NCBI GenBank assembly: GCA_035546295.1
Contig: DATKBT010000125.1
Coordinates: forward strand, 333,056-397,055
DNA from: Thermoanaerobaculia bacterium
GTDB taxonomy: Bacteria > Acidobacteriota > Thermoanaerobaculia > Multivoradales > Multivoraceae
DNA: 64,000 nt
Direction: 5' to 3'
A model generated the notes under the pieces. That model worked only from the letters and a program-made list of their open reading frames with translations. It was not told the origin of the DNA and made no database searches. The first letter of the stretch is position 1. Every line of letters starts with the position of its first letter. Both the position numbers and the translations under genes were made by a program. This document shows, piece after piece, positions 5,247-64,000 of this stretch.

Positions 5247-6619
5247 GCACCGTCGGCCAGCGGCGATGGAGCGCGACGCTGGTCGTCCCGGCGGCTCTCG
5301 CCGTGCTGGTGGCCGTGCTGTCCGCCTTCTCCTGCCGTCCGGCCGGCGACCGCGGGGGCTCGGACCTGGAGCCCGCGCCGGGCGGGCCGATCCTGATGAT
5401 CACCCTCGAGGGGCTGCGCGCCGACGTGGTCGGAGCCCTCGGCGGGCTTCCCGGGCTCACCCCCGCCGTCGACGCGCTGGCAGCCGAAGCCGACTGGTTC
5501 GGTTCGGCGGTGTCCGCGTCGAGCGCGAGCGCGCCCGCCATGGTCAGCCTGCTCACCGGTCTGCGCCCCCACGATCATCGGGCCTGGAACGCGGCGGCGC
5601 CGCTGCGGGCCCAGATCGAGACCCTGCCCGAGGCACTGCGCGCCCGCGGGTACGCGACTCGCGCCTATCTGTCGAGCGAGTGGCTGCGGGCGTCCCCGAG
5701 CTTCTTGCAGGGCTTCGACGAGGTGCAGCCCCTCGCCATCGTCCGCGCGGCCGAACGCGACCTGCGAGCTGCGGCCGGAGCGCCGGCGCTGGTCCTCGTC
5801 GAGATCGCGGCGCCCGCTCCTCCGTACCGTCTGTACCCGGCGCTGCTGCCGCGCCTGGAGGCGCTCGGCGACCGGGTGGCCCGTGACGACTTGCCGGAGC
5901 GCTTGGGACTGGGAGAGGTCCGGGAGCTCGCTCGCAGCGCTCAGGAGCTGGGGACGGACGAGCTCGGCACCTGGTGGGCGATGTACTGCCTCAACGTCGC
6001 CCGTGCCGACCAGCGGGTCGGCCAGCTCCTGGATGCCCTGCGTGAGAGCGGCGCCTGGGACCGCTCGACCGTGGTGGTGACGTCGCTGCGGGGCGAGCCG
6101 CTCGGTGACGACATCGGCGACGGCCTGCGCCGCCGGCTCATCGAGGTGCCCCTGATCGTCAAGCTGCCGGCGGGAGCCGGCGCGCTGGGTTCGCTTCCGG
6201 CGCCCGGCTCCCTGCTCGAGACCACCTCCTTGTGGGCGACCCTGGTCGAGCTCGCGGGCGGCTCGCGGCCTCCCGGCGTGACGCCGGGATGGTTCGAGGG
6301 TCCTGGCGGTCTGCGCGGAGCGGGGGCCTGGTCGGAGCGCCGGACACCGGCCGGGCGCCTGCAGGTCTCGTGGATCTCGGGCGACGAGCAGGTGCTCCTC
6401 GAGCTCGATCGCTCGCAGAGGAGGGTCGTCGGCGAGGTGTGGAGGTGGCTGCCGGACGGAGGAGAGCGGCTCTCCGACCGTGCGAGCGCGAACGAGGCTC
6501 TCCAGGCCGAGACGCTGCGCCGTTGGCGCCTCCTGGCGCAGAGCGCGGGGCAGTCTCCGATCGAGTCGCTCGAACGCGCCCCGCGACCCCGGGCCTCGAG
6601 CCGCGGTCAGGACAGCTAA
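5240..6619 (+). CDS. alkaline-phosphatase superfamily (sulfatase-like) protein with an N-terminal signal/TM segment
   Basis: GVS start overlaps the trpS stop. It has an N-terminal hydrophobic segment, then ITLEGLRADV...SASAPAMVSLLTGLRPHDH, resembling the sulfatase/phosphotransferase metal-site region. The canonical C/SxPxR signature is missing. Confidence 0.55.
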   Translation: MLSTVGQRRWSATLVVPAALAVLVAVLSAFSCRPAGDRGGSDLEPAPGGPILMITLEGLRADVVGALGGLPGLTPAVDALAAEADWFGSAVSASSASAPAMVSLLTGLRPHDHRAWNAAAPLRAQIETLPEALRARGYATRAYLSSEWLRASPSFLQGFDEVQPLAIVRAAERDLRAAAGAPALVLVEIAAPAPPYRLYPALLPRLEALGDRVARDDLPERLGLGEVRELARSAQELGTDELGTWWAMYCLNVARADQRVGQLLDALRESGAWDRSTVVVTSLRGEPLGDDIGDGLRRRLIEVPLIVKLPAGAGALGSLPAPGSLLETTSLWATLVELAGGSRPPGVTPGWFEGPGGLRGAGAWSERRTPAGRLQVSWISGDEQVLLELDRSQRRVVGEVWRWLPDGGERLSDRASANEALQAETLRRWRLLAQSAGQSPIESLERAPRPRASSRGQDS

Positions 6620-9920: not shown

Positions 9921-11039
9921 ATGTCGGAGGAGATCCAGGGCTTCCGCTTCCGCGCCAGCACCCGCGTGCCGTACGGCGAGAAGGTGCGGCTGCGCTTCGA
10001 TCGCAGCGAAGGCTCGCTGGTGACGGTGTGCTCGGATCTCTCGGTCGAGGGGATGTTCGTCGCCACTCGCGAGGTCAGGCCGTTGGGCACGGTCGTCGAG
10101 TTCGAGATCGAGGGGCGGGAGGACGAGATCGCTCGCGGCCTGGGCGACATCGTCTGGGCCCGCGAGGAGGCGGCCGGACCGGGCCGGTACGCCGGGATGG
10201 GCATCCAGTTTCGGTACGTCGATCCGATCAGCCGCCAGCTCATCGCCGAGATGGTCGCGCGGCGCCGGCGGGAGAAGGAGGCCGAGGAGGCCGAGGACGC
10301 CGAGGAGGAGGGAGGAGCCGCGGGGCACTCGATGGAGGTGACGGTGCCTCCCGGGGTCGAGGTGCCGGTGGATGAGGCGTCTTCGGTTCGCGCGCCGGCC
10401 GCGATTCGGCGAACCGAGGACGTCGTCCTCGCCGGCAGGGGGGGGGAGGCTACCGAGGCTCCAGTGGGACCCGTGGCGCTCGACGGGGAGCAGGTAGATC
10501 GGCGACGCCGCGGCTTCCCCTGGATCTGGGCGATCCTCGCACTGCTGCTGCTGGGTGCGGCGGCCGTCGCCTGGTGGATCTGGTTCTCGGAGCGCCCTTC
10601 GGCGGTCCCTCCCATTGCGCGGTCGACGCCGGAGCCGGTCGCGGGTGATCGCGAGGCCGGCGCAGTCGCGGTCGCGCCGGAGGCGAGCTCTGCGCCGGCC
10701 GGCCCGGTCGAGGTCCGCTCGCTCGCCCTGATCGAAGACGGTGGCGAGACGGCGCTGATCGCCATCGAGCTGACCCGAGTCCCGGAGGGGGACGGCGTGC
10801 GGGTGAGCCGGTTGGAGGATCCGCCGCGGGTGCTGGTGCGGATCCGGGGGGCCGAGCGGGTGCCGCCCGATTCGGAGCTGGCGATCGAGACCGACCTGGT
10901 GCGGGGGTTGCGAGCAGCCGTCCACCTCGAGGGAGGCAGCTCTGAGCTGCACCTGGTGTTCGATCTCGCCGACGAAGGGGCGCGCGCCGCGTCCCGGGTC
11001 GAGGGACAGCGCCTGCTGCTGCGCCTCTCGAATGGTTGA
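9921..11039 (+). CDS. PilZ domain - single TM - AMIN-like periplasmic domain protein
   Basis: N-terminal PilZ motifs RxxxR (RASTR) and DxSxxG (DLSVEG). An acidic linker is followed by one TM helix (WIWAILALLLLGAAAVAWWIWF). The C-terminal part resembles an AMIN domain (PPRVLVRIRGAE...LHLVFDL). Confidence 0.75.
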   Translation: MSEEIQGFRFRASTRVPYGEKVRLRFDRSEGSLVTVCSDLSVEGMFVATREVRPLGTVVEFEIEGREDEIARGLGDIVWAREEAAGPGRYAGMGIQFRYVDPISRQLIAEMVARRRREKEAEEAEDAEEEGGAAGHSMEVTVPPGVEVPVDEASSVRAPAAIRRTEDVVLAGRGGEATEAPVGPVALDGEQVDRRRRGFPWIWAILALLLLGAAAVAWWIWFSERPSAVPPIARSTPEPVAGDREAGAVAVAPEASSAPAGPVEVRSLALIEDGGETALIAIELTRVPEGDGVRVSRLEDPPRVLVRIRGAERVPPDSELAIETDLVRGLRAAVHLEGGSSELHLVFDLADEGARAASRVEGQRLLLRLSNG

Positions 11040-13382: not shown

Positions 13383-13474
13383 CGGTCGACTCCTGAGGAG
13401 GGGGGAGCTCATCCGTGTGCGGCCCTCAGCTCGAGGTGGAGCCGGGAGAGCATCGGCTGCTAGCATGGGGTGAC

Positions 13475-20239: not shown

Positions 20240-20254
20240 TGCTAGCCTCCGCCG

Positions 20255-20811
20255 ATGTCGTCGACCAGGAGGGTGATTCGGGCTCTCGACGCCCTGAGTG
20301 AGCGCACGGGCAACTTCGTCCGCTGGCTCACGCTCCTGATGGTGCTGTTCGGCGCGTTCAACGCCGTCGCGCGCTATGGCGGGCGCTTCATCGGCTTCAA
20401 CCTGAGCTCGAACGCCTGGCTCGAGCTCCAGTGGTACCTGTTCAGCATGGTCTTCCTGCTCGCCGCCGCGAACACGCTGAGAGAGGACGCCCACGTCCGC
20501 GTCGACGTGCTCTACGGTCGCCTCTCCGGTCGGGCGCGCGCCTGGATCGACCTGCTCGGGGCCGCGCTCTTCCTGCTGCCCTTCTCGATCTTCGCGCTGG
20601 TGGTCTCCTGGCCGACGGTCCGCAACTCCTGGCGGATCCTCGAGGGCTCTTCGGACCCCGGCGGGCTGCCGCGCTACCCGATCAAGACCATGATCCTGAT
20701 CGGATTCGCCCTGCTGCTCCTGCAGGGGGTGGCGGAGCTGCTGCGCAACGTGGCGATCCTGCGCGGACGGGAGAGCCCGCACGCGGTCTCCAGCCACGAG
20801 GAGAGCGGGGT

Positions 20812-27058: not shown

Positions 27059-27104
27059 CGGCCGAATCTAGCAGCCCGTGGGTGAAACTCCCGGAGGTCC
27101 GGGA

Positions 27105-28811: not shown

Positions 28812-31487
<2,676 letters not shown>

Positions 31488-31569
31488 GAACCTGTCCGAG
31501 TTTTCGGGATCTGGCTCTACGGCTGTTTGCCCGGCGACGCGCCGCAGGCGCCTGGAGCCGGGAGAGCAT

Positions 31570-31626
31570 CTAGCCGGAGAATGTGCTACAGCGCGCGCAA
31601 GGCGCGACAGCACATTCGGAGGCTAG
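31570..31626. repeat. palindromic element CTAGCCGGAGAATGTGCT-loop-AGCACATTCGGAGGCTAG in the convergent mutS/ssb gap
   Basis: A 9-bp stem GAATGTGCT/AGCACATTC encloses a GC-rich inner hairpin; CTAG at both ends; overlaps the ssb stop. It is a likely bidirectional terminator and belongs to a 4-member family (see 46096, 46218, 55491). Confidence 0.6.
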
Positions 31627-38700: not shown

Positions 38701-38775
38701 TGGGGCGTCGCCAAGTGGTAAGGCACCGGACTTTGGATCCGGCATTCGGGGGTTCGAATCCTCCCGCCCCAACCA
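38701..38775 (+). tRNA. tRNA-Gln (anticodon TTG)
   Basis: Cloverleaf: acceptor TGGGGCG/CGCCCCA, anticodon stem CCGGA/TCCGG with loop CTTTGGA, T-loop TTCGAAT, encoded CCA. It is close to E. coli tRNA-Gln(UUG). Confidence 0.9.
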
Positions 38776-44896: not shown

Positions 44897-46099
44897 TTGA
44901 GACACGACCCGCATGGTCCAGGCGCGCCCGACGGGGATGGTGGGCGGGAGCCCGTGATTGGCCGGTTCGTCGGCGAGCCGACACGGGACCTGGCGGAGTG
45001 GTTCGAGCTCTGGACTCGCGACCTCCGCTTCCCGCTGCGCAGTCGCCGGAAGGGCGCGCTGGGCAGCCTCGCCGTGCTCGCGCGCCGCGCACTGCGCCCG
45101 CTGGTGCGTTTCGGCGGCGGCGATCTGTGGGATCGTCAGCAGGTCTTCAACCTGATCCTGCTCGAGAAGCTCCAGGAGCTCGAGCGCGCCGGCGCCGATC
45201 TCGAGGCGCGGCTCTCGCGGCTCGAGACCTTCGCGCGCGAGGGGGTCGACCAGGTCCTGCGCCACAACGACGCCCTGTTCAGCCGGCTCGACCAGAAGGT
45301 CGACCTCTACCGGCGCGGAGTCCGTGATCTCTCGTCCCAGCTCGGCGCTGCGCTCGCCCTCGCCGAGGGCAGCCCTGCCCCGGCCAGGACCCTGGCCGAG
45401 CACGCGGCCGCGATGCGCTACGCGGGGTTCGAGGACCGCCACCGCGGCACCGAGGAGGAGATCGCCACGCGGGTGGAGCGCTATCTCGGCGAGCTGGCGG
45501 GCTGCAGCCCGATCCTCGACCTCGGATGCGGTCGCGGCGAGGCGCTCGCCGCCTTCCGAGCCGCCGGCCACCAGGCGAGGGGCGTCGACCTGAGCGCCGC
45601 GATGGTCGCGCGCTGTCGCGAACGAGGCCTCGACGCGGTGCAGGGCGACCTGATCGAGGTGTTGGCGCAGTCCGAGCCGGGATCCCTCGGCGGCGTGGTC
45701 TCCTTCCACGTCGTCGAGCACCTCCCGCCGGAGGTCGTCGATCGTCTGCTGACGCTCGCCTGGCGCGCGCTGCGGGACGGCGGCAAGCTGATCCTCGAGA
45801 CGCCGAACCCCGAGTCGCTGGTGGCCGGCGCCAGCCGCTTCTGGCTGGACCCGACGCACCGGCGGCCGGTCCATCCCGAACGGCTCGCCAGCGCGGCGCG
45901 ACAGGCCGGCTTCGAGTCCGTCGAGATCCGGCCGTGCAGCCCCTTCGGCCGCGAGGAATCGCTGCCGGAGGTGTCGCTCCACGGGCTCGAAGGCGCGCCG
46001 CGCGATCTCGCCGATGCGGTCAACCGGCTGCGCGACCGGCTCGACGACCTGCTCTACGGCGACCAGGACTACGCCCTGGTCGCCACCAGAACTGCCTAG
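44897..46099 (+). CDS. class I SAM-dependent methyltransferase with an N-terminal coiled-coil region
   Basis: LDLGCGRGEALAAF (motif I) and LRDGGKLILETP (post-I). The start is uncertain: TTG at 44897 or GTG at about 44954. Confidence 0.7.
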   Translation: MRHDPHGPGAPDGDGGREPVIGRFVGEPTRDLAEWFELWTRDLRFPLRSRRKGALGSLAVLARRALRPLVRFGGGDLWDRQQVFNLILLEKLQELERAGADLEARLSRLETFAREGVDQVLRHNDALFSRLDQKVDLYRRGVRDLSSQLGAALALAEGSPAPARTLAEHAAAMRYAGFEDRHRGTEEEIATRVERYLGELAGCSPILDLGCGRGEALAAFRAAGHQARGVDLSAAMVARCRERGLDAVQGDLIEVLAQSEPGSLGGVVSFHVVEHLPPEVVDRLLTLAWRALRDGGKLILETPNPESLVAGASRFWLDPTHRRPVHPERLASAARQAGFESVEIRPCSPFGREESLPEVSLHGLEGAPRDLADAVNRLRDRLDDLLYGDQDYALVATRTA

Positions 46100-46135
46100 C
46101 CTCCGAATGTGCTGGCTAGCACATTCTCCGGCTAG
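46096..46135. repeat. palindromic element CTAGCCTCCGAATGTGCT-GGCT-AGCACATTCTCCGGCTAG
   Basis: 9-bp stem GAATGTGCT/AGCACATTC with a 4-nt loop, starting at the methyltransferase stop codon and followed by ATTCTTTCG. It is a likely terminator and belongs to the palindrome family. Confidence 0.6.
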
Positions 46136-46158
46136 ATTCTTTCGCGGCTCCAAGCGCC

Positions 46159-46220
46159 TTCGGCGCGTCGCCGCGGACAGCCGTAGAACCGGGTAGCGAA
46201 TACCCGGACAGGCTCCTCTA
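46159..46220. repeat. 62-bp direct repeat, copy 1 (contains hairpin CCGGGTA-GCGAA-TACCCGG)
   Basis: About 58/62 identical to copy 2 at 46351..46412. In copy 1 the stem-closing pair is A-T; in copy 2 it is G·T (a wobble in RNA). Confidence 0.6.
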
Positions 46221-46257
46221 GGCCTCCGAATGTGCTGGTAGCACATTCTCCGGCTAC
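46218..46257. repeat. palindromic element CTAGGCCTCCGAATGTGCT-GGT-AGCACATTCTCCGGCTAC
   Basis: Second copy of the GAATGTGCT/AGCACATTC hairpin, 122 bp downstream of the first. Confidence 0.6.
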
Positions 46258-46350
46258 TTATGCTCCCGGCTCCACTCCGAGCTGAGGCGAAGACGAAGCG
46301 AGAAGCGGAGAGGTACGCTGAGCCCTGCGAAGCGCGCCGAGCCCCGCGCA

Positions 46351-46412
46351 TTCGGCGCGTCGCCGGGGAACAGCCGTAGAACCGGGTGGCGAATACCCGG
46401 ACAGGCTCCTCT
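46351..46412. repeat. 62-bp direct repeat, copy 2, abutting the PBP1A stop
   Basis: TTCGGCGCGTCGCCGGGGAACAGCCGTAGAACCGGGTGGCGAATACCCGGACAGGCTCCTCTA; see copy 1. Confidence 0.6.
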
Positions 46413-48947
46413 CTACCCGCTGGTCTTCTGCTTCCCGTCGTCTCTCTGGACCAGGCTCCAGTCCTCGATGTCCTCGGGCATGTTCTCGCCGTCCTTGGGC
46501 TTGCCGTAGAACGCGCGCTGCTGGTACCAGGGGAGCTGGAGGATGCGTGCCCACTCGGGGCTGTACTCCTGGACGGGCTCGGTGCCGAGGAGGAAGGCCT
46601 CGTCGAGGGTCTCGGTCGCCGCCGAGGTGGCGAGCAGGCCGGTGTCGTAGTCGACGCGACGGAAGACGATGCCCGGCGGCGGCAGAAAGCCTCCCTCCGA
46701 CTCGGCGATCCAGCCCTCCTCGAGCCCGTGCTCGACGATCCGCTTCCAGATCGGGAGGGCGGCGATGGCGCCGGTCATGTTGCGTCCGATCCGCTGCTTC
46801 TTGTCGAAGCCGACCCACACTCCAATCGACAGCTCCGGCGTGAAGCCCATGAACCAGGCATCGGTGAAGCCGTCGGTGGTTCCCGTCTTGCCCGCGATCG
46901 GCACCGGCAGCGACGCGAGCGCGGTGGCGGTTCCGTGCAGCACCACGCCGCGCAGGCTGTAGATCAGCAGGTAGGCGATCTGCGGGTCCATCGCCTGCGA
47001 GGTGTTGATCTGATGCTGGTGGATGGCCCGGCCGGAGGGCGTGCTCACGCGCTCGACCAGGTAGGGCTCGACCCAGATCCCCTGGTTGGCGATGGCGGCG
47101 TAGCCCGCGGTCAGCTCGAGCGGGGTCAGCTCGGCGACCCCGAGGGCGAGGCTGGGGAAGGGCGGCAGCGGCGAGCTCAGGCCGCAGCGGCGGGCGAAGT
47201 CGACCACCTTCTCGACGCCGACCAGGTCCTGGAGCTTGACGGCGGTGACGTTGATCGACTTCTCGAGCGCGCGCCGCAGCGTCAGGATGCCGTTGTACTC
47301 GCGATAGAAGTTCCGCGGGCTGTAACTGGCGAGCTGGTCTCCCCCCATGAACACCGCCGGGGCGTCGAACAGCGTGTCTGCGGGCGTGTAACCGGCCTCG
47401 TACGCCGCCCCGTAGACGAAGGGCTTGAACGCGGATCCCGGTTGGCGTCTGGCCTGGATGGCGCGGTTGAACTCGTTGCGCTGCTCGTCCCAGCCGCCGA
47501 CCAGGGCGCGTACGGCGCCAGTGGCCGAGTCGAGAACGACGACGGCGCCCTCGAGCCTCGGCTCCTGGGCGAGCTCGAGTCGCAAGGGCAGAGGCTCCGG
47601 CTCCTTGGCCGCCGCTTCCCCCTCCGCTGCGGCTTCGATCTCGACCGCGGCGTCGGCAGCCTCTTCCTGGGCGTGGATCGTGAACCACGCGACGTCTCCC
47701 ACCTTCAGCACGTCGCTGGGTCGGCTCTTGCGGGTCCAGGCGACCTGCTCGGGACCGATCTCGAAGCGCCGCTCGCCCACCTTGATCGTCGCGGTGGACC
47801 GTTCCACGGCGAGCACGAGTCCCTCGACCCAGTCGCCGGGGGCCAGGTCCTGGGTGCTCCAGGAGGCGAGCTCGGCGGCCTCGAGCTCGTCGACGTCGAG
47901 GTGCTGGTGCGCGCCCCGCCAGCCGTGGATCATCTGGTCGATGCGGACCAGGCCCCAGCGCAGCGCCTCCTCGGCAGCGCTCTGGAACCGGGGCTCGACC
48001 GTGGTCGTCACCTGGAGGCCGCGCTCGTAGAGCCCCTCCTCGCCGTACCGCTCGTAGAGCTCGCGCCGCACCGCCTCCGCGAAGTAGGAGCCAGGCCGGC
48101 GGTCGCGGCGGCGGGGCGCGATGGACAGCGGCTCGGCGGCTGCTGCCGTGAACTCCTCGGCGGTGATGTGACCCTCGTCGAGCATCCGGCCGAGCACCAG
48201 GTTGCGTCGCGCGGTCATGAACTCGGGTTTGCGGATCGGGCTCCACTCCGACGGCCGTTTCAGGATCGCCACCAACGTCGCCGCTTCGGGCAGCGTGAGG
48301 TCGGCCGCCGGCTTGTCGAAGTAGAAACGGGCGGCGGACTCGAAGCCGTAGTTGCCGTGGCCGAGGTTCATCACGTTGGCGTACAGCGTCAGGATCTGCT
48401 GCTTGCTCAGGGTCTTCTCGAGCTCGACGGCGCGGAAGGCCTCGGCGATCTTGCGCTCCCAGCCCCTTCGTCCGGTCCGGGCGGTGCGGTCGAGGAAGAG
48501 AGTGCCCGCCAGCTGCATGGTGATGGTCGAGGCGCCCTCGTGGCGGCCCTTGAAGAGGTTGCGGGCGGCCGCGCGCGCGATGCCGACGGCGTCGACGCCG
48601 CCGTGGCTGAAGAAGTTGGCGTCCTCCATCGCCACCAGCGCATTCTGGAGGACCTCTGGAACCTCCCCCTCCTCGAGCATCACGCGGCTCTTGTTGAAGT
48701 ATTGCCGGTAGACTCCGCCGCCGCTGTCGTAGAGCTGTGTGATCAGCTCCGGCGAGTACTCGGTGATCGAGTCGACCTCAGGGATGTGGATGGTCGCCGC
48801 AAAACCGGCGCCGAGCAGGGCGCCGACGATCACGGCGGCGGGAAGCGGCAGCAGCCAGCGCACCAGGCGCCGCTTCACTCGCTGGGCCGGCCGGCGTGAG
48901 ACCGGCGGAGAGGGCTCGGGGCTGGGAGGAGGAGACTCGGTGGGCAA
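46413..48947 (-). CDS. mrcA: penicillin-binding protein 1A (bifunctional glycosyltransferase/transpeptidase)
   Basis: 844 aa; GT51 motifs (EDANFFSHGGVD, GASTITMQLA), transpeptidase motifs, and an N-terminal TM anchor; TTG start. Confidence 0.9.
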   Translation of the reverse strand: MPTESPPPSPEPSPPVSRRPAQRVKRRLVRWLLPLPAAVIVGALLGAGFAATIHIPEVDSITEYSPELITQLYDSGGGVYRQYFNKSRVMLEEGEVPEVLQNALVAMEDANFFSHGGVDAVGIARAAARNLFKGRHEGASTITMQLAGTLFLDRTARTGRRGWERKIAEAFRAVELEKTLSKQQILTLYANVMNLGHGNYGFESAARFYFDKPAADLTLPEAATLVAILKRPSEWSPIRKPEFMTARRNLVLGRMLDEGHITAEEFTAAAAEPLSIAPRRRDRRPGSYFAEAVRRELYERYGEEGLYERGLQVTTTVEPRFQSAAEEALRWGLVRIDQMIHGWRGAHQHLDVDELEAAELASWSTQDLAPGDWVEGLVLAVERSTATIKVGERRFEIGPEQVAWTRKSRPSDVLKVGDVAWFTIHAQEEAADAAVEIEAAAEGEAAAKEPEPLPLRLELAQEPRLEGAVVVLDSATGAVRALVGGWDEQRNEFNRAIQARRQPGSAFKPFVYGAAYEAGYTPADTLFDAPAVFMGGDQLASYSPRNFYREYNGILTLRRALEKSINVTAVKLQDLVGVEKVVDFARRCGLSSPLPPFPSLALGVAELTPLELTAGYAAIANQGIWVEPYLVERVSTPSGRAIHQHQINTSQAMDPQIAYLLIYSLRGVVLHGTATALASLPVPIAGKTGTTDGFTDAWFMGFTPELSIGVWVGFDKKQRIGRNMTGAIAALPIWKRIVEHGLEEGWIAESEGGFLPPPGIVFRRVDYDTGLLATSAATETLDEAFLLGTEPVQEYSPEWARILQLPWYQQRAFYGKPKDGENMPEDIEDWSLVQRDDGKQKTSG

Positions 48948-55098: not shown

Positions 55099-55492
55099 GG
55101 TGGGCCGGAGGATCGGACCGGGTCGCGGCGGCGACAGCCGTCGAGGAAAGTCCGAACTCCAACGGGCAGCATGCTCGCCAACCGCGAGGCGCGGCGACGC
55201 GACGGAAAGTGCAACAGAGAGCAGACCGCCCGCGGCTTCGGCCGTGAGGTGAGGGTGAAACGGTGCGGTAAGAGCGCACCGCTCGGCCGGCGACGGACCG
55301 AGGCACGGCAAACCCCATGCGGAGCAAGACCAAATAGGGAGCACGGTCGAGCGGGCCGCCTGTCCCGCCAGCGCCTTCGGGCGCTCCGTTCTCCGGGTAG
55401 GTCGCTCGAGCCGTCGAGCAATCGGCGGCCCAGAGGAATGACCCGGGCGCTTCGGCGCAACAGAATTCGGCTTACGAGATCCTCCGGTTGCT
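55099..55492 (+). ncRNA. rnpB: RNase P RNA, bacterial type A
   Basis: GAGGAAAGTCCG(A/G)ACTCC, GGGTGAAACGGTGCGGTAAGAGCGCACC, CAAATAGGG and the 3' ACAGAATTCGGCTTA. The P1 helix is CCGGAGGATC/GATCCTCCGG. Confidence 0.88.
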
Positions 55493-55540
55493 GGCCTCTG
55501 AATGTGCTGGTTGGCGCATTCGAGGCCAGCAGTGTTTTCC
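55491..55540 (+). terminator. intrinsic terminator of rnpB: hairpin CTGGCCTC-TGAATGTGCTGGTTGGCGCATTC-GAGGCCAG plus T-run
   Basis: 8-bp perfect outer stem with GTGTTTTCC immediately 3'. The inner arms carry the same GAATGTGCT core as the palindromes at 31570, 46096 and 46218. Confidence 0.65.
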
Positions 55541-63817: not shown

Positions 63818-64000
63818 GAATCGGCCGCGAAGGTAGGATCTAGGAGCCCGTGGTGAAACTCAGCACGCCCGCACGACAAGGCCTTTCCGCTCCGCCGGAG
63901 GCCGAGAAGCCCCTCACACGACCGGTGGTCGTCGCCAGGTCTCGAGCGGCTTCCCGCCACCGGCTGCGCTCCAAGTCCTTGTCGACCTTCGGCTTGCGGC

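Follow-up and report, generated by a model that had tools for sequence, protein, structure and literature searches.

In the window analyzed here, a 64,000-nt (64-kb) stretch of contig DATKBT010000125.1 from a Thermoanaerobaculia bacterium, the genes for an S-adenosylmethionine (SAM)-dependent methyltransferase and for PBP1A converge on a gap of 320 bases. The gap is occupied by two head-to-tail copies (A and B) of one composite, noncoding unit of about 125 nt. On the basis of sequence comparisons, and with a probability that we put at roughly 0.7, the region represents a dimer, arranged head to tail, of a small noncoding mosaic mobile repeat from a Thermoanaerobaculia/Holophagae lineage of Acidobacteriota, a repeat that resembles transposable elements of the miniature inverted-repeat type (MITEs) as well as bacterial interspersed mosaic elements (BIMEs) and that has a right end of the type seen in the IS1182 family of insertion sequences (ISs).

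The order of parts is the same in each unit: a CTAG with a 40-nt palindrome (the left palindrome), a GC-rich central module carrying the nested hairpin GCGCC-TTC-GGCGC, a right end that reads ...GAATAC(C/T)CGGACAGGCTC, and a closing (CT)CTAG. The central module is variable and takes long, short, or entirely different forms between the constant ends. Copies A and B overlap in a single CTAG (46218-46221), and their shared parts are 94 to 98% identical. The unit has no real coding capacity; its CTAGs create stops in several frames, and the open reading frames (ORFs) that span the region are GC-rich artifacts. The features of the gap and the two genes that bound it are as follows.

46096-46221, + strand: copy A, short form; its first CTAG holds the methyltransferase stop codon; match to the family profile (nhmmer), E = 2.4e-37
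46096-46135, + strand: left palindrome of copy A, CTAGCC-TCC-GAATGTGCT-GGCT-AGCACATTC-TCC-GGCTAG; fold of -21.2 kcal/mol, z = -5.8
46141-46177, + strand: central module of copy A; in the predicted fold, an outer stem CGCGGCTC/GCCGCG encloses GCGCC-TTC-GGCGC (46154-46166)
46189-46207, + strand: hairpin CCGGGTA-GCGAA-TACCCGG, specific to the subfamily made up of copies A and B (winA and winB), L059, and L018
46201-46215, + strand: right terminus of copy A, TACCCGGACAGGCTC, with 1 mismatch to the family/IS1182 right inverted repeat TACTCGGACAGGCTC, followed by CT-CTAG
46218-46415, + strand: copy B, long form; it ends in CTA (46413-46415), which is the PBP1A stop codon TAG in reverse complement; nhmmer E = 8.9e-30
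46218-46257, + strand: left palindrome of copy B, with a 3-nt loop, a weaker outer stem, and the end GGCTAC; -17.7 kcal/mol, z = -3.6
46258-46369, + strand: long central module of copy B, of which about 46275-46345 is absent from copies A and C
46394-46408, + strand: right terminus of copy B, TACCCGGACAGGCTC, of the IS1182 inverted-repeat type
44897-46099, + strand: SAM-dependent methyltransferase gene (Pfam Methyltransf_23/11/25; GC content at third codon positions [GC3], 0.89), with its stop codon TAG (46097-46099) inside the first CTAG
46413-48947, - strand: PBP1A gene, with a stop codon that abuts the right end of copy B

An earlier reading made from the sequence alone (the original prediction) had listed two palindromes and two 62-bp direct repeats in this gap. 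The palindromes (46096-46135 and 46218-46257) agree with our analysis in coordinates and stems: both have the 9-bp inner stem GAATGTGCT/AGCACATTC, with loops of 4 nt (copy A) and 3 nt (copy B) and a TCC/TCC internal loop, and that of copy A has an additional outer stem, CTAGCC/GGCTAG. The direct repeats are also real (46159-46220 and 46351-46412). Two substitutions and a 1-nt indel, rather than a single base, separate the two copies; the single A/G difference is true only for a 43-nt core (46177-46219 and 46370-46412). Nor are the four pieces independent, since they make up two tandem copies of one composite unit. Neither component is expected by chance in such a sequence, as the palindrome pattern gave 2 matches versus 0.02 expected in shuffles and the 40-nt core of the direct repeat gave 2 matches versus 0.00 expected. 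We considered an integron attC site and rejected it from a reading of the sequence: copy A is without a GTT/AAC core, and its ends are CTAG.

Distribution of the repeat family

The original prediction had proposed a search for further copies, and these exist both within and beyond the window. A profile built from 21 members recovers the three units of the window (copies A, B, and C, of 126, 198, and 142 nt, respectively), a solo palindrome, and a fragment, with nothing further in the window at an E value of ≤1. The density of the family is 3 to 4 per 64 kb. The additional members in the window are as follows.

31485-31626, - strand: copy C, the third full unit, exactly between the stop codons of ssb and mutS; nhmmer E = 6.2e-35
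55489-55531, + strand: solo palindrome, GCTGGCCTCTGAATGTGCT-GGTT-GGCGCATTCGAGGCCAGC, related to the left module; -33.7 kcal/mol; profile E = 0.003
13420-13462, - strand: fragment, GCTAGCAGCCGATGCTCTCCCGGCTCCACCTCGAGCTGAGG, derived from the long central module and flanked by a DUF4126 gene and a TPR gene

The loop of the left palindrome in copy C holds an extra GC hairpin. At 20242-20257, in the 6-nt gap of two codirectional genes (the second encoding a DctM-type transporter), the sequence CTAGCCTCCGCCGATG is similar to the initial 10 bases of the unit's left end; this may be chance or a relic.

About 30 additional copies were found in Acidobacteriota metagenome-assembled genomes (MAGs) and soil metagenomes, and the family profile gave 36 matches in the collected DNA. 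A pattern scan of one genome per species yielded six loci, all in Acidobacteriota MAGs; in one Holophagae MAG, JAQBHE01, five copies lay on four contigs and had the same composite architecture as in the window. A scan of metagenome contigs yielded 50 loci, about 27 of which are true members, all from three related samples and with a GC content near 0.7. The flanks of the true members are unrelated, and their mutual identity is often >95%. The other approximately 23 of the 50 metagenome matches, together with L066, L067, L070, and L071, were discarded as chance matches (lower GC content, no palindrome, and no CTAG); in the metagenome scan, chance matches were about as many as expected for the pattern used.

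Variants of the left-palindrome loop (short, or either of two long GC-hairpin loops) track the variants of the central and right modules, and this covariation shows that the composite propagates as one piece. In two Holophagae copies (L001 and L006), both end modules are kept around an unrelated center, which is the pattern expected if the ends matter. All tandem cases (copies A and B of the window, L001, and L035) are arranged head to tail.

Related sequences in other arrangements were also observed. In L022 (50-230) and L050 (1380-1497), a GTAG-tagged palindrome is followed by tandem units of approximately 85 nt, each of which consists of a mini-palindrome of two IS1182-type terminal inverted repeats (a TIR-TIR mini-palindrome) plus GGGGATGGGCCGGAG(G/A)ATGAGCCTGCGAATCCTTCGGGGC. 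In two Acidobacteriia-type MAGs with a GC content of 0.58, the palindrome core CCGAATGTGCT...AGCACATTCTCC (L002, 7051-7100; L003, - strand of 5741-5776) sits within a different, larger inverted-repeat element that has the ends GTCATCCTGAGCG...CGCTCAGGATGAC and no CTAG.

Scans of viral contigs for an IS bearing the left palindrome gave 0 matches and 2 chance matches, and a blastn search of the unit against plasmids gave short chance matches within genes only. A literature search on the core sequences returned primers only. As far as the literature was searched, the family is undescribed, and it appears to be a new small mobile repeat with a left end unlike an IS repeat.

Orthologous gaps in relatives

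Six loci from relatives (PBP1A identity, 79 to 87%) conserve the gene order of the window, in which PBP1A converges on methyltransferase-rplI-rpsR-rpsF. The gap between the PBP1A and methyltransferase genes in these six loci measures 28 to 105 nt and is without this family, and the C terminus of PBP1A has the same final residue in the window and in the relatives. For the convergent mutS and ssb genes, the spacer of the closest relative (86% MutS identity) measures 42 nt and is element-free, and the stops are TGA. In a less closely related one (L072; 81%), this gap holds a different mosaic of 241 nt, which begins at the TTC-TAG of ssb, and the long central module of copy B (winB 40-158) matches this locus (5842-5726) with 81.5% identity over 119 nt (E = 2e-26). 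The near-perfect, 43-nt solo palindrome overlaps the last two bases of the class A RNase P RNA (55106-55490, + strand, 261 bits). It is missing 3' of rnpB in three relatives and is therefore an insertion, placed here at the 3' terminus of a gene for a structural RNA. The intergenic spacers of the relatives are not alignable and bear other repeats, which precluded an exact comparison with empty sites. Judged by these gaps, the unit is a lineage-specific insertion and not a conserved part of the locus.

One of the other repeats constitutes a second CTAG-tagged family, which reads CTAG-GAGCCCGTGGTGAAACTCAGCACGCCCGC (variant, CGGGGCCGTGGTGGTCACCAGTCCC) and starts with GAGCC like IS5/IS1182 repeats. 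It was detected in the window at 63840-63872 and 27068-27100, in L011 at 10099-10131, and in the flanks of L036, L059, L012, and L072. This second family fills the PBP1A/methyltransferase gap of L011 (100% identity over 33 nt), a related variant (CGGGCTCGTGGTGGTCACCAGTCCCC) opens the gap of L012, and the CGGGGCCGTGGTGGTCACCAGTCCC variant forms the ends of the L072 mosaic. At about 930-960 of L011 (reverse strand), just 3' of rnpB, there are several head-to-tail copies of GCGCGTTGCGCGGCGTTCT, at the place taken in the window by the solo palindrome.

CTAG flanks and stop codons

Nearly every copy of the family starts with CTAG-CCTCCGAATG, and the majority finish with GGCTC-CTAG or GGCTCCTC-TAG; versions with loss of the A read TGG or CAG. 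The window contains 22 CTAG sites, versus 171 expected from base composition or 67 expected under a second-order Markov model. Seven of the 22 fall in members of the family, at least 6 others serve as stop codons, and roughly two thirds of the CTAG sites in the window are in repeats or at stops.

The TAG of the element is the stop codon of a co-oriented real gene in 15 of about 28 loci, where a real gene was defined by a GC3 of ≥0.82 and a GC content at second codon positions (GC2) of ≤0.57. In several loci (PBP1A, mutS, and L039), a convergent gene has its stop codon in the right-hand CTA. Copy C is flanked on both sides in this way: ssb stops at the TAG at 31623-31625 (- strand), and mutS stops at the TAG at 31485-31487 (+ strand). 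Both genes were confirmed by Pfam matches and codon-position GC content. Genes abutted by an element stop with TAG, and the stops are TGA in five of the seven family-free gaps (L007 to L010 and L073). The remaining two family-free gaps (L011 and L012) have TAG stops, and the L011 gap has the second CTAG-tagged repeat described above.

SSB ends in the universal ...DDDIPF, so the position of its stop is ancestral and the insertion took place at the stop codon itself. Phenylalanine encoded by TTC and followed by TAG yields CTAG, whereas TTC-TGA does not. Because CTAG is strongly depleted in the genome, stops of the form NNC-TAG would be the tolerated targets, and the element would thereby supply the stop codon of the flanking genes.

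IS1182-type right end and the proposed mechanism

On the opposite strand, the right end of the unit reads CTAG-GAGCCTGTCCGAGTATTC. The GAGCCTGTCCGAGTATTC segment agrees with the left repeat of IS1182, GAGCCTGTCCGAGTAATC, at 17 of 18 bases, a score that was equaled by 0 of 5,000 shuffles. The 15-mer TACTCGGACAGGCTC is present with 0 to 4 mismatches in 21 copies. The IS1182-type terminal sequence GAGCCTGTCCGAGTA adjoins CTAG, and the family consensus right end is ...GAATACTCGGACAGGCTC-CTAG, to which copies A and B have 1 mismatch each plus an extra TC and copy C has 2 mismatches.

A scan of IMG/VR with CTAGGAGCCTGTCCGAG detected three contig ends of unknown host; in two of the three, the available sequence continues for approximately 60 nt, into an ORF starting with MAKVFRSWNVDQ or MSKTFRPWDVDQVWLLPPS, and the third contig stops before any ORF. 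A blastn search of one of these ends against plasmids matched annotated IS1182-family transposase genes (ISMno8, ISMno38, and others). Of the annotated IS1182-family copies, five of five begin with CTAG-GAGCC(T/C/G)GTCC..GTAA, and four of four intact right ends finish with GGCTC-CTAG. A transposition trap has captured ISPse1, another member of the IS1182 family, together with a 4-bp direct repeat (PMC3281130). The Holophagae copies and L022/L050 have a TIR-TIR mini-palindrome as their right module. In the least decayed copies, an inward-facing partner precedes the right repeat; it is visible in L004 and L005 and degenerate elsewhere. In the subfamily of the window, the inner TIR partner is decayed and has been reshaped into the CCGGGTA/TACCCGG hairpin.

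We propose that the DDE transposase of an ISMno8-like IS1182 element moves the unit in trans, and that insertion occurs at CTAG with duplication of the CTAG. Intragenic insertions would be lethal and the tolerated targets would mostly be NNC-TAG stops, after which the element would supply the stop on one or both sides. As every insertion would regenerate CTAG at both ends, new copies would tend to land beside old ones and give rise to tandem and mosaic clusters. An autonomous IS1182-family partner would be bounded by CTAG-GAGCCTGTCCGAG...CTCGGACAGGCTC-CTAG. The element is an ordinary kind of selfish DNA and not a dedicated regulatory RNA, and whatever it might do to the host would be a by-product. 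As reported for the repetitive extragenic palindromic (REP) sequences of Escherichia coli, a hairpin starting at the stop codon could protect the mRNA 3' end or disturb translation termination.

Several observations weigh against mobilization by an IS1182 transposase. The left palindrome aligns with the right end or with the IS repeat no better than shuffles do (p = 0.19 to 0.45), and on these scores we do not interpret it as a degenerate IS1182 repeat. As the left palindrome is not a demonstrable inverted copy of either, the composite is without the pair of symmetric TIRs usually required by a DDE transposase. A tblastn search with the ISMno8 transposase detected no IS1182 transposase in the window or in 487 kb of collected loci, and the best 120 of 8,000 matches in a protein search with ISMno8 were all of alphaproteobacterial type, none being assignable to Acidobacteriota. 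A Pfam scan of 10 ORFs of the window likewise detected no transposase. No transposase was detected in any sequence examined, and mobilization by an IS1182 transposase is therefore inferred. Several copies have unequal end 4-mers (CTAG versus CTAC, CTAA, or TTAG), and the target duplication is something that we infer from flank statistics, there being no filled/empty pair with alignable flanks. Finally, both neighboring stop codons abut the cluster with no ancestral spacer left, so more than one simple insertion would be needed.

Possible spread by a tyrosine transposase

A rather unlikely alternative is that the 40-nt palindrome is a REP-type single-stranded DNA hairpin spread by a tyrosine transposase, either REP associated (RAYT) or TIR associated (TIRYT), with the IS1182 right end as a nested passenger on its CTAG. 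An imperfect palindrome of 40 nt with a conserved internal mismatch loop fits the REPs in size and shape. Its left end is not an IS-type inverted repeat, and the palindrome is found both alone (the solo copy after rnpB) and paired with different downstream modules (L022/L050). According to published work, flanking ORFs often take their TAG stop codon from GTAG REPs, and Acidobacteria have a separate clade of TIR-associated tyrosine transposases (Di Nocera et al. 2013, PMC3733652). The CTAG tag is one base from the canonical GTAG. A GTAG-tagged left palindrome occurs at L022/L050 alone, which are one locus, whereas about 27 of 30 copies carry CTAG, and the CTAG flanks are already accounted for by the IS1182 target. 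The copies are head to tail and not alternating as in typical BIMEs and REP doublets forming hairpins (REPINs). The palindrome variants and the remainder of the unit covary, which means that the composite is moved as a whole. No tyrosine transposase turned up in the Pfam scan of the 10 ORFs, although no search aimed at one was made.

A bolder version of this alternative appears quite unlikely to us. The CTAG-tagged 40-nt palindrome could be the founder of a third superfamily of tagged palindromes, beside the GTAG and CGTC REPs, that homes to NNC-TAG stops in Acidobacteriota via another transposase, possibly of the acidobacterial TIR-associated tyrosine type, and recruits IS1182 ends and modules into mosaics. 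If so, the stop-codon hairpin could tune translation termination or mRNA decay in housekeeping genes, ssb, mutS, and PBP1A among them.

Evaluation of RNA-level readings

Besides a REP/MITE-like element, the original prediction had offered stacked terminators or a small structured RNA. It is very unlikely, in our view, that the cluster is primarily an RNA element kept by host selection in the 3' region common to the convergent genes (i.e., a bidirectional terminator, an mRNA stabilizer, or a small RNA). The position right after the stop codons, in convergent gaps in the window, would suit such an element, and the folding is strong. When both strands were folded, as had been suggested, we obtained -157 kcal/mol for the + strand (z = -4.3) and -165 kcal/mol for the - strand (z = -3.6); the strands fold about equally, and neither stands out. 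Against an RNA function, the element is absent from both gaps in relatives, and its orientation relative to transcription varies, with a divergently transcribed gene on the left in about 6 of 27 copies. Terminators find no support, since a scan for intrinsic terminators and promoters at 45800-46700 gave 0 sites on both strands and the hairpins in the gap precede CTAG and GC-rich sequence, not a T-run. No Rfam family was matched either: nothing in Rfam 15 reached the gathering score, and the best candidates at an E value of ≤10 scored 10 to 17 bits versus cutoffs of 50 to 66.

The base-pairing pattern across 21 copies was evaluated for signs of selection. Family-wide conservation is limited to the left palindrome and the small GCGCC hairpin. 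The RNAalifold covariation term was +0.48, with one compensatory pair, and 87.6% of cells were paired in a hand-specified structure versus 86.8% in shuffles. Loop insertions lengthen the hairpins and do not break them, and there are a few pair-preserving changes, of which two are true pair swaps: T-A to C-G atop the left palindrome, and an interchange of C-G and G-C in the central outer stem that separates subfamilies (10 versus 6 sequences). The A-U to G-U change that had been taken as an indication of RNA selection lies in the CCGGGTA/TACCCGG hairpin. This hairpin is confined to one subfamily, within which L018 has a C at that site, a mismatch; across the family, 70% of its cells are paired. 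Stem cells with G.T (38) and A.C (44) are balanced, which indicates that neither strand is favored. Neither pair counts nor the G.T/A.C ratio nor covariation pointed to selection by the host for a role as RNA. The family as a whole clearly forms hairpins, a trait that fits recognition at the DNA level no less well than an RNA.

The adjacency and the high identity of copies A and B might suggest that an ordinary hairpin region between genes was duplicated in tandem, purely locally and without belonging to a wider family, a reading that is refuted by full copies 14.5 kb away, in other MAGs, and on approximately 27 metagenome contigs with unrelated flanks.

Other features of the window

At 10363-10437, in a stretch without a clear coding frame, there is a 29-nt inverted repeat (TGCCGGTGGATGAGGCGTCTTCGGTTCGC/GCGAACCGAGGACGTCGTCCTCGCCGGCA) whose arms are separated by 17 nt. 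The sole tRNA gene of the window encodes tRNA-Gln (anticodon TTG; 38701-38775, + strand).

Implications

The mobile repeat described here is of a familiar kind and adds no new kind of biology. It provides Thermoanaerobaculia/Holophagae, for which MAGs are nearly the sole source of knowledge, with a repeat family defined by its sequence, and offers a simple mechanistic reason for why small repeats frequently "provide" stop codons: the target would be CTAG, a sequence otherwise avoided by the genome. Repeats of this kind disrupt metagenome assemblies and give rise to spurious ORFs, and they should be masked before searches for regulatory RNAs in these genomes. They also alter the 3' ends of core genes and are for this reason useful as strain markers.

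Comparison with known systems

The REP/MITE-like element of the original prediction holds up well, given a dispersed multicopy family that is lineage specific at orthologous sites, has CTAG flanks, and carries an IS1182-type right end. Correia/NEMIS, RUP, and ERIC elements are hairpin-forming intergenic repeats with TA-containing targets that can be cotranscribed with their neighbors. The present family has no sequence relationship to them, belongs to another phylum, and apparently has the full CTAG as its target.

Similarities to REPs and BIMEs are closer. Both have an imperfect palindrome (20 to 40 nt in REPs) with a terminal tetranucleotide tag, are extragenic, lie mostly just 3' of genes where the tag gives a TAG stop, and form mosaic clusters with short motifs. 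Unlike REPs and BIMEs, the family has a CTAG tag instead of GTAG, a direct rather than alternating orientation, and one module that is clearly derived from a DDE-type IS.

Compared with IS-derived MITEs (of the ISMno8/ISMno38 type), the unit differs in its left end, a different palindrome without significant similarity to an IS repeat, so that symmetric terminal repeats are not demonstrable; in the lack of an autonomous partner in the Acidobacteriota sequences examined; and in its head-to-tail arrays with exchanged central modules. It shares with MITEs its small size (about 125 to 200 nt), its noncoding and nonautonomous nature, its many dispersed and near-identical copies, and its presence or absence among close relatives. 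It also has a right end that agrees with an IS TIR at 17 of 18 positions, CTAG flanks like those of the annotated ISs, and, at some loci (L004, L005, and L022/L050), TIR-TIR mini-palindromes.

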